Positions 3,297-58,228 of a DNA stretch of 61,298 nucleotides are shown here, piece after piece. Made by a program: the position numbers and the translations under genes. The notes under the pieces are model-generated. The model saw only the letters and a list, made by a program, of their open reading frames with translations. It made no database searches and had not been told where the DNA came from. The stretch spans positions 128,001 through 189,298 of the forward strand of contig NZ_KE383880.1 of NCBI RefSeq assembly GCF_000422585.1, read 5' to 3'. Every line of letters begins with the position of its first letter. Position 1 is the stretch's first letter. Origin of the DNA: Hugenholtzia roseola DSM 9546. GTDB taxonomy: Bacteria; Bacteroidota; Bacteroidia; Cytophagales; Bernardetiaceae.

Positions 3297-3932
3297 TTAT
3301 TTCTCAATGCGGACAAAAGAATTGATAGCACCAGGGATTGCACCTGCTACTACAATTAGATGTGATTCAGGAATCACTTTCATCACACGCAAGTTCTTGA
3401 CCTTGACACGTTTTCCGCCCATACGACCCGCCATGCGCTGTCCTTTGAAGACGCGCGAAGGGAAAGACGAAGCACCTACCGAACCGGGCGCACGCATACG
3501 GTTGTGCTGACCGTGAGTACTCTGCCCCACACCGCCAAAGCCATGACGCTTCACTACGCCTTGAAAGCCTTTGCCTTTGCTTGTACCGATAACATCTACG
3601 AAGTCGCCTTCGGCGAAGAAGTCGGAAGCGGTAACTTCCTGTCCTAATTCGAAGGTACGCTCGGCGGCGGCACGCATGGCTTTAAATTCTGCCACCTTGC
3701 GCTTAGGGGTAGTACCTGCTTTTTTGAAGTGTCCTTTCATTGCTTCGGGCGTGTTTTTCTCTTTGGCTTCACCAAAGGCGAGCTGAACCGCGCGATAGCC
3801 ATCTGTGTCTTCTGACTTTACTTGTGTAACCACACAAGGACCAGCTTGTATAACTGTGCATGCGAGATTGCGTCCATCGGCACCAAATACGCTAGTCATT
3901 CCTATTTTTTTCCCAATTAAACCTAATGGCAT
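3297..3932 (-). CDS. rplC: 50S ribosomal protein L3
   Basis: 211 aa [21 protein letters not shown]..., the canonical L3 N-terminus. Confidence 0.95.
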
Positions 3933-4407
3933 GGTTTTGAATGGTTTTACTAATAAGTCAATTTGTTTGTACCCTCTTTTTCGCTTCTGCGTCTTATCAA
4001 ACTAAGAAAACACAAAAAGAGAAAGTACGCTTTTTCCAGCTTTCTGAAAAAAGAGCAAATCGCTTATTCTATCTGTGGTAAAATGATTTTGAAAGCCTTA
4101 GCGAGGCTACTTTGGAAGTAGGCTATTTTCTATGCACAATAAAATAAAGCACCTTGCAGTCTATTTTTCAAATAGTACCTAATCAAGATGCTCCATTTTC
4201 GCCTTTTAAAAGCCTATAATTAGCTCAAAATAAGGGACAAGAGAAGGGCTACCTCTTCTAAGGGACTGCAAAGTTAGGCATTTGCTTTCATTCTACCAAA
4301 CCTTTGCCCAACTTTTCTGCCTTTTTTTCAGCAGGTTGTAAAAAAAAGTTCCCCTTGTCGGGATAAATTTGAGATAACAATTTGGCAGTGCTGTTTTCTA
4401 AAAAAAA

Positions 4408-6495
4408 CTACCATTTCAGACCCAAAATCAAAACGTCATCTATTTGGGCTTCGCCGCCCTGCTCACGCCAACTTTCGAAGGCTTGGTCTAAAAGGTGGGC
4501 TTGGGTAGTGAGCTTTTCTGTCGCAATTTCCTCTAATAATTTTTTAAGCCTTGCGATACCAAATTTTCGGTTGTTTTCGCCCCCAAATTGGTCTTGAAAG
4601 CCGTCGGAAAGGAGATAGAAAACAGTGGGCGAAGTCGTATCGATGCTTTTTTTGGTAAAAAGGCGTTCCTGCTCGCGCTGCTCGCCGCCGATAGGCATCT
4701 TGTCGCCTTTGAGCAAATGCAGCCCTGTATGATTGAAATAGAGAAGCGGATTTTTAGCTCCTGCAAATTCTATTTTTTGGGTCAGGGTATCTATGACTAT
4801 CAGACTCAAATCCATGCCGTCGCGATTGGCAGTATGAGCCTGTTGGAGAGCCTCTCGCACGCCTTTGTGGAGGGCGTTGAGAATCAGGTCGGGGCTTGTT
4901 TGGCGGTCTTGACGGACAATTTTGTGTAAAATTTCGTTGCCCAAAACGGTCATGAAAGCCCCCGAAACGCCATGTCCTGTGCAATCTATGGCGGCAACGA
5001 CGATTTTTTCGCCTACTTTTTCTACAAAATAAAAATCGCCTGAAACGATGTCGCGCGGCTTGAAAAGGATAAAAAATTCGGGCAATAGGCTTTCAATGGC
5101 TTCTCTTTTGGGCAGAAAAGCCTCCTGAATCCGTCTTGCGTAGTTGATGTTTTGCGTAATGTGCAGGTTTTGTTCTTCTAAGGCGCGTTTCTGTATTTGC
5201 AACTCTTGGGTGCGCTGCTCTACTTTTTCTTCCAAAACCAAATTTTGCTGGGCTATGATGCGGCGATTTTCCTCCGCAATCACTAATTTTTCGCGCTCGG
5301 CTTCTTTGCTGCGATAGCCCAAACCCAACGAAAAAACAATCAATTCTACCAAAACGCCCACCTGCACGACAACGCCATCAGTATCAGGATTGGCACTTGA
5401 AAAAATAACTTCTTTGAGAATTGCAAAAAATAGGGGCAGCGTCATTGCCAAATAGCCCAAGACGATATAAGTTGTCAAAACTTTGCTAACTTTCCACGTT
5501 GCGCCGATAAGCACCAAGCCGCCCAAAATATCTATCAGAAAAAGAACCTGAATCCCTGCATTTTCCAAAATGAGGCGAGGCGTGTCGTGATAATACAAAA
5601 GCGCAAGCACAATCGTAAGCAGGCGAAAATAGACCCAAAAGCGAAAATAGCGATTGAGTTGGGGTCTGATTTGTGGAATGTGTAAAAAATAGCGAATAAA
5701 TTGGGTGTAAAGCAAGGTTACAAAAAGTGCTGCAAAATTGGTAAAAACAGTGAGCAAGATAGGCTCTTCCCAAACAAAAAGAAAGGTATCTTCAAGCCCA
5801 ACGATTGCCATGCCCAAGATATAAAATGCGTAGTAAAAATAAGCCTTGTCGCGGACAATAAAAAAGAAGAAAAGATTATAGAAAAACATCAGCAGAAAAG
5901 CTCCCCGAAAAAATAGCTGTCGTCCTCGCTGTTGCGCTTGTTGTGCCAGAGCCACTTCGGGAATTTGAACGATAAAGCCTTCATTTTCAAGGTCTTGATA
6001 CGAATTTCGCGCCCTTAAAAGAAGCGTAAGGGTATCGGCAGCAGGAATTTCGAGCAACAGGGCAGGCGATTTGTCTTGCCAATTTCGCTTGGAAAGTGGC
6101 ACGTGCAGCCCCGTTTGGAGCGATTGCAAAACCTTTTGTTTGCTATCAAAAAGTAGGGCTTCGAGGCTATCAAAAGGGGGAACGGTGAGCAGATAGCGCG
6201 TTTGGGTAGGGTTTTGGTTGAGGAGTTTGATTTTAAAAAAATAAGAAACACGCGGTTTGAAGTGGGCAGGCAGGGTTTGATTTTTTGCCCAAAGGGAATC
6301 CTGCAAAAAATAGGCAGGCGAAAAATCTTGTAGCGCGGTGCTTTCATAAAAGGCTACCCAATCGGGCGCAAGCCGTTTTTCTAAGGGTGCATTTTTTTCT
6401 AAAATTAGCGTTTTTTCTTGCGCCCAAAGCGCATTCGAACCTAAAAATCCTACCAAAAAAATAAAAACATTGGCTAAAAAAATGCGAAAAGCCAT
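4408..6495 (-). CDS. 7TM receptor (7TMR-DISM-like extracellular domain plus multi-pass membrane region) fused to a SpoIIE/PP2C-type serine phosphatase
   Basis: ORF 4408..6663. A signal-peptide-like Met (MAFRIFLANVFIFLVGFLGSNALWAQEK) sits at 6493-6495. There are many hydrophobic helices in the middle, then a coiled coil. The C-terminus carries NINYARRIQEAFLP, DIVSGDFYF and AAIDCTGHGVSGAFM, hallmarks of the SpoIIE/PP2C phosphatase domain. Confidence 0.8.
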   Translation of the reverse strand: MAFRIFLANVFIFLVGFLGSNALWAQEKTLILEKNAPLEKRLAPDWVAFYESTALQDFSPAYFLQDSLWAKNQTLPAHFKPRVSYFFKIKLLNQNPTQTRYLLTVPPFDSLEALLFDSKQKVLQSLQTGLHVPLSKRNWQDKSPALLLEIPAADTLTLLLRARNSYQDLENEGFIVQIPEVALAQQAQQRGRQLFFRGAFLLMFFYNLFFFFIVRDKAYFYYAFYILGMAIVGLEDTFLFVWEEPILLTVFTNFAALFVTLLYTQFIRYFLHIPQIRPQLNRYFRFWVYFRLLTIVLALLYYHDTPRLILENAGIQVLFLIDILGGLVLIGATWKVSKVLTTYIVLGYLAMTLPLFFAILKEVIFSSANPDTDGVVVQVGVLVELIVFSLGLGYRSKEAEREKLVIAEENRRIIAQQNLVLEEKVEQRTQELQIQKRALEEQNLHITQNINYARRIQEAFLPKREAIESLLPEFFILFKPRDIVSGDFYFVEKVGEKIVVAAIDCTGHGVSGAFMTVLGNEILHKIVRQDRQTSPDLILNALHKGVREALQQAHTANRDGMDLSLIVIDTLTQKIEFAGAKNPLLYFNHTGLHLLKGDKMPIGGEQREQERLFTKKSIDTTSPTVFYLLSDGFQDQFGGENNRKFGIARLKKLLEEIATEKLTTQAHLLDQAFESWREQGGEAQIDDVLILGLKW

Positions 6496-6659
6496 TTCAG
6501 ACACAAACTTTTTGGTATCTAAAAAATGGCTTCTCTGAAAATAGCTCTCCTGCCGCATGCGCTTTATTTGTTGTCTTTTTTTGTTTTGTAAAAAACGCAA
6601 GGTAGCCATCTTTCGCTGCAAAAGCAAATTTGCGGCATCGAGGATTTTCCAACAGCTTT

Positions 6660-7319
6660 TCAAAAATCTTTGCCTTGCGAAAAATAATCTGCTCCCCCTT
6701 CCTGCGGCTCTATGGCGATAAGACGCGCCAAGGTCATCTTGACCAAAATGGCGGAGGCTTCGGGTATGGAAATGGCGGCAAGTTTGGCGAAATTTTCTAC
6801 ATTGATGCGCTTATGACTCCCCAAATATTTGAGTAGCCACTGCTCTTTTTCGCCATAATTGACAAAGGTATCTTTGGGATTGCTTTCGGCTTTCAAAATC
6901 TTGCGCATCTCACGACTGGCTTGTAGGCTTTTATCCAAACTGCGAATGTAGGCGCGACCGATTTTGCCCTTCGAGTCGTGCAAGAGAAAGACGGGCTTTT
7001 GGGTGTGGGGTTTGATGTCGAAGACCAAGACCTCTTTTCCCTCTGTGCGCGGCACTTCGATTCGATGGAGTTGGTATTCTATCTGCGGCTTGCAAAACTT
7101 TTGCAGGGTAGTGGCAAGTGCGTAAAGTTCCTCGTCGGGGTGTTTGAGTCCATTGATAGTGCCATCATCGGAAACGCCAATAATAAGTTTGCCACCTTTG
7201 GTATTGGCAAAGGCAACGGCTTCACGCGCAATTTTATGCGGATAATAGACTTTGCGTTTAAATTCTATTTCCAAACCTTCGCCTTGTGCAACAAAACGGC
7301 GTAGTTCTTTGAAGGTCAT
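6660..7319 (-). CDS. AlbA_2 (divergent AAA-4 / Schlafen-like) putative DNA-binding domain protein
   Basis: N-terminal ELRRFVAQGEGLEIEFKRKV...REAVAFANTKGGKLIIGVSDDGTINGL is the typical AlbA_2 motif set. Confidence 0.55.
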   Translation of the reverse strand: MTFKELRRFVAQGEGLEIEFKRKVYYPHKIAREAVAFANTKGGKLIIGVSDDGTINGLKHPDEELYALATTLQKFCKPQIEYQLHRIEVPRTEGKEVLVFDIKPHTQKPVFLLHDSKGKIGRAYIRSLDKSLQASREMRKILKAESNPKDTFVNYGEKEQWLLKYLGSHKRINVENFAKLAAISIPEASAILVKMTLARLIAIEPQEGGADYFSQGKDF

Positions 7320-7381
7320 GGGTGCAAAGGATTTGAGTGGGCAAAAGGGCGATACCGAAGTAGTCTTTTTTAGGTAGGGGC

Positions 7382-7963
7382 TTATAGGTCGGAAACGACA
7401 TAGAGGCTATCTAAGTTCCGTCCGTAGCCATCATAGTCCAGACCGTAGCCGACGACAAATTGGTTTTCAATTTCAAAGCCTACATATTTGACTGAAATAT
7501 CGTGCTGCAAGGCAGTAGGTTTGACCAAAAGGGCAGCAATTTCAACATCTTCTACGCCTTTTTCGCGCAGATAAGCCAAAATCTTGACCATCGTATTGCC
7601 CGTATCTACAATGTCTTCTATCACCACGACGCGGCGATTGCTTAGGTTTTCATTCAAACCAATTAGCTCCTGCACCACACCGCTGCTCTGCATCTTATCC
7701 TGATAGGAGGCATATTTGACAAAAGAAAAGTGGCAGGGAATGGCGATATAGCGCACCAAATCGGCAGCAAAAACAAAGGAACCGTTTAGCACGCCAATAA
7801 AAAGCGGCAAATCGTTTTGATAATCCGCCTCTATGCGTTTTCCCAAATGCGCCAAACGCTGGGCAATCGCCTCTTTGGAAAGTAGGGGCTTGAAATAACG
7901 GTCTTTGACCAAAATAGGCGCGGCGTGGTCGGCAGGGTCGGACGAGGCAGTAGAAAGCGTCAT
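7382..7963 (-). CDS. hpt: hypoxanthine-guanine phosphoribosyltransferase
   Basis: PRPP-binding motif VVVIEDIVDTGNTM. Overall length and similarity fit HPRT. The ORF track begins at 7999; the internal Met at 7963 is an equally plausible start. Confidence 0.85.
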   Translation of the reverse strand: MTLSTASSDPADHAAPILVKDRYFKPLLSKEAIAQRLAHLGKRIEADYQNDLPLFIGVLNGSFVFAADLVRYIAIPCHFSFVKYASYQDKMQSSGVVQELIGLNENLSNRRVVVIEDIVDTGNTMVKILAYLREKGVEDVEIAALLVKPTALQHDISVKYVGFEIENQFVVGYGLDYDGYGRNLDSLYVVSDL

Positions 7964-8355
7964 GGGCAGAAAGGCGTTTTGTTTTTTTAGAAACAACAAA
8001 AAAAAGGCTTTTTCTGTTTAATTCAAAATCTTGACAAAAAAAGCACCCCAAACAAGCAAAATCCGCCAACAAACGACGAAAAAGTAAGTAGGATTTACTT
8101 AGCCGACTTAATAGAATCAAAGGGCTATTTTATCGAAAATAAACGCCTTTTGAAGGGCTGTGGCGCAACTTTTGGTAAGAAGGATAACAAAAAAAGCGAC
8201 CTTATTGTCTTCTATCCGAAAAAGACATAAAGCCAAAATCTTACATGCCTTTTTTTTCCTTTTGGCAGCAAAGCGACAATTTTACCAAATATTCTCTTGT
8301 TTGTTTGGTAGAAAAAAATTATCTTTGATTAGGAATAAAACCCCATTCGCCCTGC

Positions 8356-12359: not shown

Positions 12360-12485
12360 AATTTGAGCGAAATAAAATTTGGATTGAACCTTTTTCGGGT
12401 CTGAAACGCCTTTGTGTTTCAATCAAACTTAGGACAAGGCAATGCCTTGTCCCTACATTTGAAAATGATTTTTTTAGAACCAAAC
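12360..12485 (+). repeat. MITE-like hairpin repeat, copy 1
   Basis: gaaataaaatttggattgaacc...tttcaatcaaacttaggacaaggcaatgccttgtccctacatttgaa...tttttagaac. Confidence 0.75.
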
Positions 12486-20722: not shown

Positions 20723-20857
20723 TAAAACAAAATAAAATTTGGGCAGAACCCTATTTTTGGGTACTAAAACCCTTTTTTGTTTCAATCTCACTTCGGACAA
20801 GGCAATGCCTTGTCCCTACATTTGAATCTGTTTTTTTAGAATTTAACATCACTGCCC
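20703..20857 (+). repeat. MITE-like hairpin repeat, copy 2
   Basis: Shares aaataaaatttgg ... tttcaatctcacttcggacaaggcaatgccttgtccctacatttgaa ... tttttagaatttaacatcactgcc with the other copies. Confidence 0.75.
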
Positions 20858-27424: not shown

Positions 27425-27545
27425 AAAAGCCTTATCTTATTAAATTGGAAACAAAATAAAATTAGGCTCAAACCTTGTTTTGAGCCTAAAAACTCTTTTT
27501 ATTTCAATCTCACTTCGGACAAGGCAGTGCCTTGTCCCTACTCAC
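27425..27545 (+). repeat. MITE-like hairpin repeat, copy 3
   Basis: ...ttggaaacaaaataaaattaggctcaaaccttgttttgagcct...tttcaatctcacttcggacaaggcagtgccttgtccctac. Confidence 0.75.
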
Positions 27546-52830: not shown

Positions 52831-52945
52831 AATTTGGACTTAAACCCTAAGGGTCTTGAAGACCCTTAGGGTTTGGGGTATAGGACAAGGCATGCTTTGT
52901 CCCTGCCTTAGTATAAAATTTTAGAACTTAACACTGATACGCTAA
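52826..52945 (+). repeat. MITE-like hairpin repeat, copy 5; overlaps the MATE stop codon
   Basis: aataaaatttggacttaaaccctaagggtcttgaagacccttagggttt...ggacaaggcatgctttgtccc...tttagaacttaacactg. It also carries an extra perfect 14-bp hairpin. Confidence 0.7.
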
Positions 52946-53100
52946 TAAGCGTTTTTGATATTTGCTTTTTCAAAGATAATATTTTAACTTTGCTACTGTA
53001 TCGAAGACAAAATCCTCTCTTTTTTTTGGTTTGTCAAATGCAGATATTTTGGATTTTGAATAGATTTCTTTTTTATTTGTAATTTATTAAAATTAAAAAC

Positions 53101-54684
53101 ATGACACCGAAAAATAAACTTTTTTATGGCGACAACTTAGAAGTTTTGAGAAAGCATGTCAAGGACGAAAGTGTAGATTTATGCTACATAGACCCGCCTT
53201 TTAATTCTAAACGAAATTACAACCAAATTTATAATAATATCGGAAAAGAAGACAAAGCACAGGCGCAGGCTTTTGTAGATACTTGGACTTGGAATGGTAT
53301 CGCAAATGAGGGTTTTGATGAAATTGTGAGCAATAAAAATGGTGTTTTTACAAAACAAAGTATCAACCTTATTTTGGGGCTTGAAAAAGTGCTGGGACGA
53401 GGAAGCCTCTTGTCTTATTTGGTGAGCATGACGCAGCGCATAGCCGAAATTTATCGAGTTTTGAAGCCGACAGGTTCATTTTACCTGCATTGCGACCCAA
53501 CGGCAAGCCATTATCTAAAATTGGTCTTAGATGCTATCTTCTGTTCACAAGGTGGAGATTTTAGAAACGAAATTGTTTGGCACTATCGAAGATGGACAAA
53601 TGTGCAGCAGCAGTTTCAAAGCATGCATGATATTATTCTTTTCTACTCGAAATCAAACAACTCAACTTTTAATTTTACGGAAGTTGATATGTCAGAAAAT
53701 CAAAAGAAAAAAGTTGCCAGAGGTTGGGATAGTAATGTTATTTCGTCAGATAAAGAGAAATATTCGCAGCTAATTGTCTATAATAAAGAAAAGTTTGAAA
53801 GTGCAGTAGAAAGTGGAAAATTAAATCCAGAAAAATATAAAAATATAATTTTTAGAGAAAAAGCAACAGTAGCAGCTTCTGACGTAATTATCCTGCCTTC
53901 TCTAAATTCACAAGCCAAAGAAAGATTAGGCTACCCTACTCAAAAACCTGAACAGTTATTAGAAAAAATTATCCAAGCCAGTTCAAACGAAGGCGATGTC
54001 ATTTTAGACTGTTATTGTGGCTGTGGCACAACGATAGCCGTTGCCGAAAGGCTCAATAGGCAGTGGGTAGGAATAGATATTACGTATCAATCTATTTCGC
54101 TGATAATGAAGCGTTTAGAAGATAGTTTTGGCAAGTCTGTGTTAGAAAAAATCACCTTATCGGGTATTCCCGAAGACATGGAGAGTGCCATAGCGTTAGC
54201 CAATAAACAAGACGACCGAACACGCAAAGAATTTGAAAAGTGGATAGTGCTGACCTACTCAAACAACCGCGCCGTCATTAACGACAAAAAAGGAGGCGAC
54301 GGCGGCATCGACGGAACAGCCTTTATCATAGATTACAACGAGGCGCAGGAGCAAGAATTTCAGCAAGTTCTCTTTTCTGTAAAATCCAACAAAAGCCTTT
54401 CGCCGACGGTCATTCGCGACTTGTATGGCACAGTAGAAAGAGAAAAAGCCGTTATGGGCTTTTTTCTAACCTTATACCCAATGCCCAACTTGGTAAAGGA
54501 AGCCGAAAAGTATGGCAATTATCAAAACAAAATGCTCGGTCAGACGTATCCGAAAATAACCGTTGTGAGTGTGCAGGAAATCTTGGCAGGCAAGCGCATG
54601 CATCTGCCCACAAGCGTAGAAGTTCTCAAAAAGGCTGTGCGAAAAGCACAAGATAACAATAACAAAGGATTTTTTAATGAATAA
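53101..54684 (+). CDS. beta-class N6-adenine/N4-cytosine DNA methyltransferase fused to a C-terminal Mrr-like PD-(D/E)XK nuclease domain
   Basis: Motif IV DLCYIDPPFNSK near the N-terminus. Motif I ILDCYCGCGTTIAV about 270 aa later (beta permutation). The C-terminal about 180 aa carries KKGGDGGIDGTAFIIDY...VLFSVKS, resembling the Mrr_cat core. Low GC. Confidence 0.7.
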   Translation: MTPKNKLFYGDNLEVLRKHVKDESVDLCYIDPPFNSKRNYNQIYNNIGKEDKAQAQAFVDTWTWNGIANEGFDEIVSNKNGVFTKQSINLILGLEKVLGRGSLLSYLVSMTQRIAEIYRVLKPTGSFYLHCDPTASHYLKLVLDAIFCSQGGDFRNEIVWHYRRWTNVQQQFQSMHDIILFYSKSNNSTFNFTEVDMSENQKKKVARGWDSNVISSDKEKYSQLIVYNKEKFESAVESGKLNPEKYKNIIFREKATVAASDVIILPSLNSQAKERLGYPTQKPEQLLEKIIQASSNEGDVILDCYCGCGTTIAVAERLNRQWVGIDITYQSISLIMKRLEDSFGKSVLEKITLSGIPEDMESAIALANKQDDRTRKEFEKWIVLTYSNNRAVINDKKGGDGGIDGTAFIIDYNEAQEQEFQQVLFSVKSNKSLSPTVIRDLYGTVEREKAVMGFFLTLYPMPNLVKEAEKYGNYQNKMLGQTYPKITVVSVQEILAGKRMHLPTSVEVLKKAVRKAQDNNNKGFFNE

Positions 54685-54761
54685 AACCTATGAATGTGGA
54701 AACTAATAGAAAAAACAGTTAAAAAATATTTTATATTCAATTAAATTCTGTTACGTTTTAT

Positions 54762-54868
54762 GAAAAGCCTTGTCTTTTCGAATTGGAAACGAAATAAAAT
54801 TTGGGTCTGAAAGCCTTTTTTATTTCAATCTCACTTCGGACAAGGCAGTGCCTTGTCCCTACAAAAGC
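54762..54868 (+). repeat. MITE-like hairpin repeat, copy 6
   Basis: gccttgtcttttcgaattggaaacgaaataaaatttgggtctgaaagcc...tttcaatctcacttcggacaaggcagtgccttgtccctac. Confidence 0.75.
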
Positions 54869-54904
54869 AAACGATTTTTTGGTGTAAAACAAGCCTCCTG
54901 AACC

Positions 54905-55026
54905 CCCACCCTGCCCTCCCCCCATAGGGGAGGGTTCGAAATACAAATCATTTTTTTGCATTTATGCAAAAAAATGATACCATATCAAAGCCCCTCCCTT
55001 TGGGGGAGGGGTTTGGGGCGGGGTGT
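54905..55026. repeat. composite palindromic element: two G/C-rich hairpins with G-quadruplex-type G-runs on both strands, flanking a perfect A/T palindrome
   Basis: ccctccccccataggggaggg (54914-54934), tttttttgcatttatgcaaaaaaa (54951-54974), cccctccctttgggggaggggtttggggcggggtg (54991-55025). The outer caccctgcc / ggcggggtg arms are also complementary. Confidence 0.5.
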
Positions 55027-56049: not shown

Positions 56050-57549
56050 TTAAAAAAAGGTCGGCTGGTCTTCTTCATACTTGATGATTTTTTTTATTTT
56101 TCCCGGTTGCGCCCAATTCATTGTACCTTCCATTTTTAAAGATAGCAAATAATTTTCGATTTTCTTATCCGCTAAGGCAGTTTGTATTCTTTTCGCTTCT
56201 GTCATTGACCTAATAGGAATAAAAGCCTGCAAAGATTGATTTGCCTGCCAATGTCCCTCGAAAATTGTTGGGTTGAATACCGTTTTACCGTAGGCTTCCC
56301 AAACGACTTTATAGGGGAAAAAGTTATATTCGCCCACCCCCAACATTGCCCACCAATACCCACGATTGAGCATCGCATTTAGCATCACCCCTTTTCGGGC
56401 TTTTAAAGTTTCTATGTTGTTTTCAAGGTAGCGTTGAAGTTTGGGGAAGGCTTGAATTTGCTTCCACTCCATTGGTTTTCCGTTGCTATTATAGGGCAGG
56501 AGTACCCATTTTGAAGGTGTAGGCGACTGATTTTTAAATGCTTTTGAGGTGAGTAGTGGAAATACAAACTTTTTAGGCAACTCAATATTTTTCTTATTTT
56601 TGTTAGAAAGGCTTACAAAATCTTTGTCTATTTCATTGAAAGTATCAAAAAAATAAACATCATTCGCACCACAGGTATTCACCCCTTGTCTGGGACTTGA
56701 TTCTCTTTTTACAAAGATAGGACTAAGCATCTCAAAATGCTTATCTTCTTCTTTGGAAAGAATACTCAAAGGGTCTGTTTGTTCAAAAAGTGGTTTTGCA
56801 ATATACTCATTCCAAAAACCTTTCTCATTTCTGAAATAAGGGATTGGAAAAGATGACTTTGTATCCCTGACAAAGTGTGCCAGCCCATAGCGCGTCGCGA
56901 CCCCTCCAAACACATCTTGGTCATTAAAATCAAAGATAGAATGAACACAATATTTGACTTCGCCAATTCGATAAGTTCTAAAACTTTTATTCGCGCCTTC
57001 ATTTAAAAACAGTGAAAGCGGTAAAAATACAATCGCTTCTCCTTTCTCTTTTAGAAAGTCTTTGATGGAAACTTGAACAATAAGGGCTGCTATATCAATT
57101 CTACTTCCCCCCAATAATAGATTTTGACTATTTCCTACTAAATCAAACTTAAAAAAGTAACTTTTTATTTGCTCTTTATAGCTTTCAGGTAAATCTACAA
57201 AATTTTGCCAAGGTGGATTACCAAATATTATATCATATCTTTTAGGAGTTAGCTTTAAAAAGTCTTCGTTGGTGAAATTTTGGGTCATATCTAAGCCATA
57301 TTTCTCTCTAAACTTATGCAGAGCTTGTGTGAAATAAACAGTATTTAATTCATTCCCAAAGAGTTTATTTATAGGAAGGCTTTCGAGAGAAAAACCCTTA
57401 GCCAAACCATAAGTAATAAGGGCTTCGAGCAGATTACCTTCACCCATAGTTGGGTCAAATACAGATGCACCTGCAAGCCATTTTGAAAATATATCGAACT
57501 TATCAATCGCAAACTCCCCCCATTTGAGCGGAGTAAAAACATCACCCAT
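56050..57549 (-). CDS. gamma-class N6-adenine DNA methyltransferase (Eco57I/TaqI-like)
   Basis: GDVFTP near the N-terminus. Motif I DPTMGEGNLL. Catalytic motif IV IIFGNPPWQ. The ORF track extends to 57666 and overlaps the upstream ORF; Met at 57549 (MGDVFTP) avoids the overlap. Confidence 0.7.
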   Translation of the reverse strand: MGDVFTPLKWGEFAIDKFDIFSKWLAGASVFDPTMGEGNLLEALITYGLAKGFSLESLPINKLFGNELNTVYFTQALHKFREKYGLDMTQNFTNEDFLKLTPKRYDIIFGNPPWQNFVDLPESYKEQIKSYFFKFDLVGNSQNLLLGGSRIDIAALIVQVSIKDFLKEKGEAIVFLPLSLFLNEGANKSFRTYRIGEVKYCVHSIFDFNDQDVFGGVATRYGLAHFVRDTKSSFPIPYFRNEKGFWNEYIAKPLFEQTDPLSILSKEEDKHFEMLSPIFVKRESSPRQGVNTCGANDVYFFDTFNEIDKDFVSLSNKNKKNIELPKKFVFPLLTSKAFKNQSPTPSKWVLLPYNSNGKPMEWKQIQAFPKLQRYLENNIETLKARKGVMLNAMLNRGYWWAMLGVGEYNFFPYKVVWEAYGKTVFNPTIFEGHWQANQSLQAFIPIRSMTEAKRIQTALADKKIENYLLSLKMEGTMNWAQPGKIKKIIKYEEDQPTFF

Positions 57550-57559
57550 GCGCAAGGCT

Positions 57560-58228
57560 TTATCTGACAAATCGGAAGTTCTGATATCCGCCATCTCTAA
57601 ATTGTTCAATTGATTTAATTCGTTTGTCTGCATCTGCCTTAACTCGTTTATAGTGGATTGTAGCAAGGTCGCAAAAAATATTAAAGAAATCTTGATAAGA
57701 CCTATTCCATTCTATCTCATCCCAGACCTGATTTATTGTATAATTAAGCCTCACTTGTCCTGTCCCCAAGTTTTCAATGCGATACATGTTTTGGGGCAAG
57801 CAGTGAAAAGGGGCAACACAGATGTACTCGATTTCTCTACTATTGTTTTTTGCAGTCGACCTATCATGTCCAAATTCGACAATCATAAAAATCCCTCTAT
57901 CATTTGCAAGAAATTTAAGAAGATTTCCGATAGCACATACACCACCGTCCGAATAACTTTTCGAATCCAAATCCTTGGTTTTAACATCAAACCCAAAAAG
58001 TTTGTTTTCAATGTTGCAAGCAAAATCAAAGATGGTTCTTCGTCCTGGTATATCAACCGTCTGATAACCTAAATTCGAACAAATCTTGTCCCAACTATCG
58101 GTTATTCTTTTTTCAATCATTGCACCAAACGCCCTGCTATCTTCTCTTGCGGAGATTCCTGACCGCATTTCTTCAAAAAGCGTTTCTATTTCAAGTTCAA
58201 TTCTCTTTGCTATTTTCTCGTAATCCAT
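57560..58228 (-). CDS. hypothetical protein, candidate PD-(D/E)XK restriction endonuclease partner of the adjacent MTase
   Basis: 222 aa, AT-rich, immediately upstream and co-oriented with the N6A MTase. IFDFACNIENKLFGFDVKTKD offers a D...(D)VK pattern compatible with a PD-DxK core. There is no recognisable family match by eye. Confidence 0.35.
   Translation of the reverse strand: MDYEKIAKRIELEIETLFEEMRSGISAREDSRAFGAMIEKRITDSWDKICSNLGYQTVDIPGRRTIFDFACNIENKLFGFDVKTKDLDSKSYSDGGVCAIGNLLKFLANDRGIFMIVEFGHDRSTAKNNSREIEYICVAPFHCLPQNMYRIENLGTGQVRLNYTINQVWDEIEWNRSYQDFFNIFCDLATIHYKRVKADADKRIKSIEQFRDGGYQNFRFVR

Follow-up and report, generated by a model that had tools for sequence, protein, structure and literature searches.

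Why should a DNA methyltransferase carry, on the same polypeptide chain, a domain that resembles a nuclease? The question is raised by one gene in a 61,298-nucleotide stretch of Hugenholtzia roseola DSM 9546 (Cytophagales; contig NZ_KE383880.1, positions 128,001 to 189,298; hereafter the window), whose product is, by sequence search, 100% identical to an H. roseola protein annotated just as 'DNA-methyltransferase'. An earlier note on this DNA had described the product as a beta-class methylase fused to an Mrr-like, modification-dependent nuclease domain, had called such a fusion paradoxical, and had offered as a fallback a single-chain restriction-modification (R-M) or Type IIG-like enzyme with an unusual domain order. 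In our analysis, the fallback became the best-supported reading: the protein would be a motor-less, partner-less, single-chain R-M enzyme, in which a methylase resembling the Mod subunit of Type III systems carries a tethered non-specific nuclease. Since we infer the nuclease activity, we hold this reading with about even confidence.

A beta-class methyltransferase joined to an Mrr-type nuclease fold

The gene and its parts are as follows, with residues numbered in the product.

53101..54684, + strand: whole gene, methyltransferase-nuclease fusion of 527 amino acids (list of open reading frames, ATG start)
53173..54105, + strand: beta-class N6_N4 DNA methyltransferase region, residues 25-335 (Pfam N6_N4_Mtase)
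53191..53202, + strand: catalytic motif IV DPPF, residues 31-34 (translation; invariant in the alignment of close homologues)
53572..53916, + strand: central target-recognition domain, residues 158-272, a swappable specificity cassette (drop in identity; lowest G+C content of the gene)
54007..54030, + strand: S-adenosylmethionine (AdoMet)-binding motif I DCYCGCGT, residues 303-310 (translation; alignment)
54121..54213, + strand: helical linker from methyltransferase to nuclease, residues 341-371 (alignments; helices in both models)
54214..54600, + strand: Mrr-type PD-(D/E)XK nuclease-fold domain, residues 372-500
54232..54237, + strand: nuclease motif I, F378-E379, within the first helix (242 of 244 members have F; at the second position, 207 have E and 36 have Q)
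54298..54312, + strand: nuclease motif II, D400-G-G-I-D404, the Mrr-specific double aspartate (D400 in 241, G402 in 242 and D404 in 243 of 244)
54376..54384, + strand: nuclease motif III, S426-V-K428 (K428 in every one of the 244 members; at position 426, 168 have S, 74 have Q and 2 have E)
54415..54420, + strand: R439-D440, in the helix that follows motif III, candidate for a substitute carboxylate (position of Mrr E231 and Cfr10I E204)

The methyltransferase half was matched by Pfam N6_N4_Mtase (PF01555) over residues 25-335 with an E-value of 2.8e-44 and 152.1 bits, against a curated cut-off of 26.7. Its motifs follow one another as DPPF (31-34), a variable segment (158-272) and DCYCGCGT (303-310), which is the order of the beta class; together with the Pfam match, this upholds the beta-class assignment of the earlier note, made from a DPPF that precedes an FxGxG. 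The region holds the helical insertion common to Type III Mod subunits and has its fold in common with solved methyltransferases, of which the closest by sequence are M.MboIIA, CcrM, M.RsrI and the Type III Mod subunits. Among 151 sequences of at least 450 amino acids, motif IV is DPPF in 144 and DPPY in one, while the remaining six have no match to it within residues 1-140, for the most part because their N termini are truncated or extended; the AdoMet motif I was found in 149 of the 151. The DPPF form predicts N6-adenine methylation. In the linker that follows, G355, P357, D359, L366 and A367 are invariant in two alignments of homologues.

The C-terminal part was matched by Pfam Mrr_cat (PF04471) at residues 375-459, with a score of 25.4 bits (curated cut-off 21) and an E-value of 1.7e-5, and it contains the strings from which an Mrr catalytic core had been proposed, KKGGDGGIDG at residues 396-405 and LFSVKS at 424-429. 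The proposed resemblance is therefore confirmed by a nuclease-family profile above its cut-off, and the acidic catalytic residues are present and conserved. The match is beyond chance, because the motifs are kept across 244 family members, which we aligned to a profile of the nuclease domain for the residue counts given above. By sequence, comparison of this part with the PDB gave nothing meaningful, whether for the single sequence (best GAPDH, E 0.77) or for the family profile (best TFIID subunit 7, E 0.013), and PHROGs contains no family for the domain alone. Fold comparison alone revealed its relatives in the PDB: MspJI (score 9.2), AspBHI (8.8), the BspD6I small subunit (8.6), AF1548 (8.4), LlaBIII (8.2) and FokI (7.5). 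Every one of these best matches is a cleavage module from an enzyme that cuts away from its recognition site. A viral fold search returned methyltransferases and generic restriction endonucleases and nothing else.

The residues that matter for cleavage in this fold are known from the work of Smith, Josephsen and Szczelkun (PMC2790908), who define the Mrr motifs as I, F-E in the first helix; II, D-x-G-h-D, in which the first aspartate, four residues ahead of the catalytic one, is a marker of the Mrr type only; and III, Q-x-K. In their alanine mutants of LlaGI, replacement of D74, D78 or K94 gave no cleavage, while E38A and Q92A merely reduced it (PMC2790908). The first three correspond to D400, D404 and K428 of the H. 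roseola protein, which are kept in 241, 243 and 244 of the 244 members, and the variable positions, E379 (E or Q) and 426 (S, Q or E), are those at which the LlaGI mutants retain partial activity. Homologues from Streptomyces phage Hippo, Mycobacterium phage Amgine and Marinitoga phage MPV1, at 36-41% identity, have the same motif pattern, with SVK in Hippo and Amgine and QVK in MPV1. In nearly all full-length members, the methyltransferase and nuclease motifs are conserved together.

The helix after motif III may supply a further catalytic residue. Substitute carboxylates have been described for Cfr10I and NgoMIV and proposed for E231 of Mrr (PMC2790908). In our alignment, sequences with S426 have R-(D/E) at positions 439-440 in 160 of 168 cases and those with Q426 have D or E there in 32 of 74, counted without correction for phylogeny. 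This pattern is suggestive of D440 as a putative substitute catalytic carboxylate where motif III has a serine.

An exchangeable recognition domain in a widespread family

Pairwise comparison of the 120 closest homologues gave a mean identity of 76% in the N-terminal catalytic core, 84% in the AdoMet part and 66% in the nuclease domain, and only 23% in the central recognition segment (residues 160-268), which falls into about 40 clusters. Identity in the recognition segment does not correlate with identity in the core (r = 0.08), while core and nuclease domain diverge jointly (r = 0.63); consequently, the recognition domain is exchanged as a cassette within a conserved scaffold. Its length ranges from 79 to 147 amino acids among homologues, and the cassette of the H. 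roseola protein is common to 18 others, cyanobacterial proteins included. Cassette-like turnover of specificity is typical of defence enzymes under diversifying selection, and housekeeping orphan methylases retain a single specificity.

The family is large. A homologue search gave at least 8000 matches. The 120 best of them are full-length without exception and 58-89% identical to the H. roseola protein, with cyanobacterial proteins among them at 66-68%. The C-terminal profile matched 2410 clusters (50% identity) at an E-value of 0.001 or below and 1092 at 1e-10 or below, and in these matches the nuclease-fold domain invariably lies at the C-terminal end of the protein. In a scan of one genome per species, at least 596 genomes contained a relative, among them members of the Bacteroidota, Cyanobacteria, Alpha-, Beta-, Gamma- and Deltaproteobacteria, Acidobacteriota, Chloroflexota, Planctomycetota, Spirochaetota, Aquificota, Saccharibacteria and others. 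Full-length homologues are also borne on plasmids and occur in temperate phages, where the Hippo, Amgine and MPV1 genes adjoin integrase or repressor genes.

We also noticed genomes with two paralogous copies, namely Chromatium okenii (loci L026 and L028) and the Dehalococcoidia metagenome-assembled genome OZ247431 (L064 and L079), and a rare architecture in a 452-residue protein (P0253), in which the linker and the C-terminal nuclease fold of the family follow an N-terminal region that is not a methyltransferase.

The earlier note had taken low G+C content (GC) as a sign that the gene was acquired. The GC of the gene (0.388) is indeed below that of the window (0.418) and of the immediate neighbours (0.44-0.46), but recF in the same window is lower still (0.366), so the gene is no outlier and GC was rejected as a sign of acquisition; only the central recognition segment is clearly low (0.319). 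Horizontal acquisition itself is supported on other grounds, because the protein shares 66-68% identity with its cyanobacterial homologues.

The combination of the two domains is already visible in precomputed Pfam annotations and is hence no discovery in itself. In the literature searched, we found no description of the architecture; candidate descriptions (Haloferax HVO_A0006, the Asgard mobile elements, and Iyer and Aravind 2016) were set aside as dealing with other subjects. As a functional class, the family appears uncharacterised within that literature.

Restriction enzyme, orphan methylase or part of a larger system

As a single-chain R-M enzyme, the protein might work as follows. The N-terminal two thirds would be a beta-class N6-adenine methyltransferase related to M.MboIIA and M.RsrI, with the layout of a Type III Mod subunit, in which the exchangeable recognition domain separates the catalytic half (DPPF) from the half that binds AdoMet; the C-terminal third would be a non-specific cleavage module of the Mrr/FokI PD-(D/E)XK type on the conserved helical linker. 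A short, specific site would be bound by the recognition domain. Where this site belongs to host DNA, the methyltransferase would use AdoMet to mark an adenine in it, and the mark would block cutting. On unmarked incoming DNA, the tethered nuclease would cut at or near the site, probably outside it, and probably only when two enzyme molecules or two sites meet, as with FokI, MmeI and MspJI. A single recognition domain would then fix both specificities, and its swap would produce a new system that is at once self-consistent, which would explain both the diversity of the cassettes and the wide horizontal spread, including the immunity regions of prophages. In phage Panchino, a comparable prophage position holds an unrelated single-subunit restriction enzyme.

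The idea favoured in the earlier note was a modification-dependent (Type IV, Mrr-like) nuclease acting against a foreign mark, with the methyltransferase writing another. It agrees with the Mrr_cat match and with the presence of the modification-dependent enzymes MspJI and AspBHI among the best fold matches. In Mrr, MspJI and their relatives, the modification is sensed by a separate DNA-binding domain, an N-terminal reader in the case of Mrr, MspJI and AspBHI, and none is present here: N-terminal to the nuclease fold, the Pfam and structural matches are to methyltransferases only, and the sole sequence-reading module is the methyltransferase's own recognition domain. The fold matches cover catalytic domains only, and they extend equally to FokI, BspD6I and LlaBIII, which cut unmodified DNA. 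LlaGI has the Mrr motifs without being directed to methylated DNA, and the authors of that work treat the Mrr motif as a conventional sub-family of PD-(D/E)XK (PMC2790908). There is thus no paradox in the fusion, because Mrr_cat is a catalytic module only, no reader domain is found, and unmethylated DNA is what LlaGI acts on with these motifs. With S426 in place of glutamine in addition, a modification-dependent nuclease is not borne out, and we regard it as highly improbable.

Another reading makes the protein one component of a larger system whose partner, such as a Res-like motor or a nuclease subunit, is encoded elsewhere, or else a selfish addiction module that acts by post-segregational killing. 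When the open reading frames (ORFs) within 2.5 kb of the homologues were clustered, no neighbour family recurred in more than 5 of the 80 species-level loci, and no res-like gene adjoins the methylase gene in the window; a conserved partner gene was rejected after this clustering and the inspection of individual loci. Since no neighbour family recurs, the protein most likely acts without a partner. Unlinked obligate partners are also unusual among horizontally mobile defence genes, and the addiction variant would be a sub-case of the single-chain R-M enzyme, since it still requires an active nuclease. A partner encoded elsewhere or an addiction role is accordingly improbable in our view, though less so than a modification-dependent nuclease.

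Individual loci showed features of their own. In a metagenome contig (JGI 3300045532, locus L002) with a cyanobacteria-like, QVK-type homologue, a 1415-residue ORF at 3752-7999, downstream of an LSDAT/SLATT gene and without a Pfam or PADLOC match, ends 1 nucleotide before the start of the homologue. This arrangement was seen once, and the ORF may be an unknown defence partner limited to that locus. In another single case (locus L006, 7173-7994), a 273-residue second N6_N4 methyltransferase is encoded upstream of the homologue with a gap of 6 nucleotides, and this enzyme might modify the opposite strand of an asymmetric site, by analogy with the two-methylase Type IIS systems. Some homologous loci lie near mobile or defence genes, including an IS1-like transposase, AbiE, toxin-antitoxin genes and SieB.

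The remaining alternative is an orphan adenine methyltransferase, in which the nuclease-fold C-terminus does not cut and serves in DNA binding, dimerisation or processivity, comparable to the C-terminal domain of CcrM; in phages, such an enzyme would protect the phage genome against host restriction. Several observations speak for it, and most of them weigh at the same time against a restriction enzyme. Every database annotates the family solely as a plain methyltransferase, and PADLOC gave methyltransferase models only among the best 25 of its 68 matches, with no IIG model. NA-iREase1, a Pfam family of inactive restriction-fold domains, scores 20.9 bits. Motif III has a serine in place of the Mrr-typical glutamine, at a position that is normally an acid or glutamine, and the motif I glutamate is replaced by Q in 15% of members (36 of 244). 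Many copies lie amid housekeeping genes without a defence context, and phage methyltransferases are commonly anti-restriction devices. Other points count against restriction as such: the covariation of positions 426 and 440 could reflect two clades rather than compensation; if an asymmetric site is methylated on one strand, self-protection after replication needs an assumed extra rule, for example a two-site requirement; so common a family, if it restricted DNA, might already have been noticed; and the literature searched, which did not cover REBASE, contained no report of cleavage, methylation or phage resistance for any member.

What speaks against an orphan is foremost the conservation of the active site. 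Inactivated folds normally lose their metal ligands, whereas D400, D404 and K428 are kept in 241-244 of 244 members, in different phyla and down to about 36% overall identity, and the positions that vary are the non-essential ones in LlaGI (PMC2790908). NA-iREase1 remains under its cut-off of 27, while Mrr_cat is over its own. The cassette-like turnover of specificity would be unexpected for a regulatory orphan, and the phage copies lie in lysogeny or immunity regions, not in early lytic modules. We consider the orphan reading unlikely, although it keeps appreciable weight as the main rival. A single-chain R-M enzyme would account jointly for the invariant catalytic residues, the co-conserved halves, the specificity turnover, the lack of a partner, the spread and the prophage position. 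The covariation after motif III, the fold matches to modules that cut away from their sites, the mobile or defence genes near some homologues and a second methyltransferase-containing pair 1.4 kb from the gene in the window also speak for it.

Among known systems, the Type ISP enzymes (LlaGI and LlaBIII) offer a precedent for an Mrr-type nuclease fused to an adenine methyltransferase. LlaGI combines an SF2 (superfamily 2) helicase motor, a gamma-class methyltransferase and an N-terminal nuclease with QxK in about 1500 amino acids, whereas the H. roseola protein has no motor or helicase domain, is of the beta class and carries a C-terminal nuclease with SVK in 527 amino acids; the nuclease motifs alone are shared. 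The Type IIG/IIC enzymes (MmeI, BpuSI, Eco57I and Panchino gp28) likewise have nuclease and methyltransferase in one chain, and the logic would be alike, with one recognition domain that sets both specificities and changes them by domain exchange. Their order is reversed, however: the nuclease comes first, followed by an N6_Mtase of the gamma class, and the recognition domain is C-terminal, in contrast to the beta-class methyltransferase and internal recognition domain found here. Panchino gp28 occupies the same prophage position as gp37, the Amgine homologue. Assignment of the family to the Panchino single-subunit system was rejected, because gp28 consists of HSDR_N_2 and a gamma-class N6_Mtase and its BLASTP E-value is 0.33, leaving an analogy only.

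Type III Mod subunits (EcoP15I Mod, H. pylori Mod 6k0w and Mbo45V Mod) share the beta class and a central variable recognition domain, but they need a separate, adjacent Res with an SF2 ATPase and a nuclease, while here the nuclease is fused and no res was found in the window or at the 80 loci. E. coli Mrr, other Type IV proteins with Mrr_cat, and MspJI/AspBHI have a dedicated reader of modified DNA, no methyltransferase and QxK, as opposed to a methyltransferase and SVK. In Type IIS systems (FokI and BspD6I; beta-class M.MboIIA), nuclease and methyltransferase are separate proteins, each with a recognition domain, whereas here one chain holds both and the nuclease lacks a separate recognition domain. 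The protein would resemble Type IIG/IIC or ISP in its working and is a member of neither, nor does it belong to Type III, having no Res, or to Type IV Mrr, having no reader.

Surroundings of the gene and implications of the family

The neighbours of the gene in the window encode a MATE transporter and a PNP_UDP_1 phosphorylase, and an AT-rich spacer lies on either side of it. The upstream spacer is 270 nucleotides long with a GC of 0.30, and within it lies one more feature:

52955..52983, + strand: promoter-like hexamers (weak evidence)

A consensus scan for such hexamers gave 8 sites for the region, where 5.5 +/- 2.3 would be expected. Downstream, between the methylase gene and the convergent phosphorylase gene, the interval 54914-55010 contains the G/C-rich hairpins CCCTCCCCCCATAGGGGAGGG and CCCCTCCCTTTGGGGGAGGGG and, at 54947-54978, an A/T palindrome; these are probably terminators. 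A 67-residue ORF at 54758-54961 on the - strand, with a GGGQGGGSGG run, is probably spurious.

We also observed a dispersed perfect palindrome, GGACAAGGCAnTGCCTTGTCC, at 12432-12453, 20795-20816, 27517-27538 and 54838-54859, with 8 strand-matches against 0.07 expected by chance. The last of these closely follows the methylase gene on its downstream side, and a degenerate version, near 52884, is found just upstream. It looks like a REP-like (repetitive extragenic palindromic) intergenic hairpin of this genome. Flanking direct repeats had been a candidate for insertion scars and were rejected, as the shared element is this palindrome scattered through the window.

A second candidate R-M pair lies 1.4 kb downstream, at 56050-58228 on the - strand. 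One member is a 538-residue Eco57I-like, gamma-class adenine methyltransferase that matches the methyltransferase part of the PADLOC Type IIG models; its annotated TTG start overlaps a 222-residue ORF, and both genes are low in GC (0.365-0.369). The 222-residue product had no match in Pfam or PADLOC and no significant one in the PDB (best E 0.28), and it may be the restriction enzyme of this pair.

Returning to the methylase-nuclease family, we tentatively propose, with somewhat less than even confidence, that it constitutes an unrecognised and very widespread class of R-M enzymes of about 500 amino acids, each a motor-less Mod-like methyltransferase with a tethered Mrr/FokI-type domain. Such a design would fill a gap among known systems, in which the motor-less fusion of a nuclease to a beta-class or Mod-like methyltransferase is missing. 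Should the nuclease half prove inactive, a nuclease fold with intact metal ligands would have been recruited to a non-cutting role in methyltransferases, which would also be worth knowing. If it is active, many genes that at present pass for solitary methyltransferases are complete defence systems, and the set at stake extends over at least 596 genomes at species level and, at 50% identity, over more than 1000 sequence clusters. Thousands of proteins named 'DNA methyltransferase', in many phyla and on plasmids and prophages, would then be active restriction enzymes that PADLOC-type annotation misses, and estimates of R-M content would shift, especially for Bacteroidota, Cyanobacteria, Chloroflexota, Acidobacteriota and temperate phages. 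The dozens of natural cassettes would form a ready library of new specificities in which cutting and protection are reprogrammed together, and a small enzyme with a naturally modular recognition domain would be attractive for the engineering of cutting specificities.

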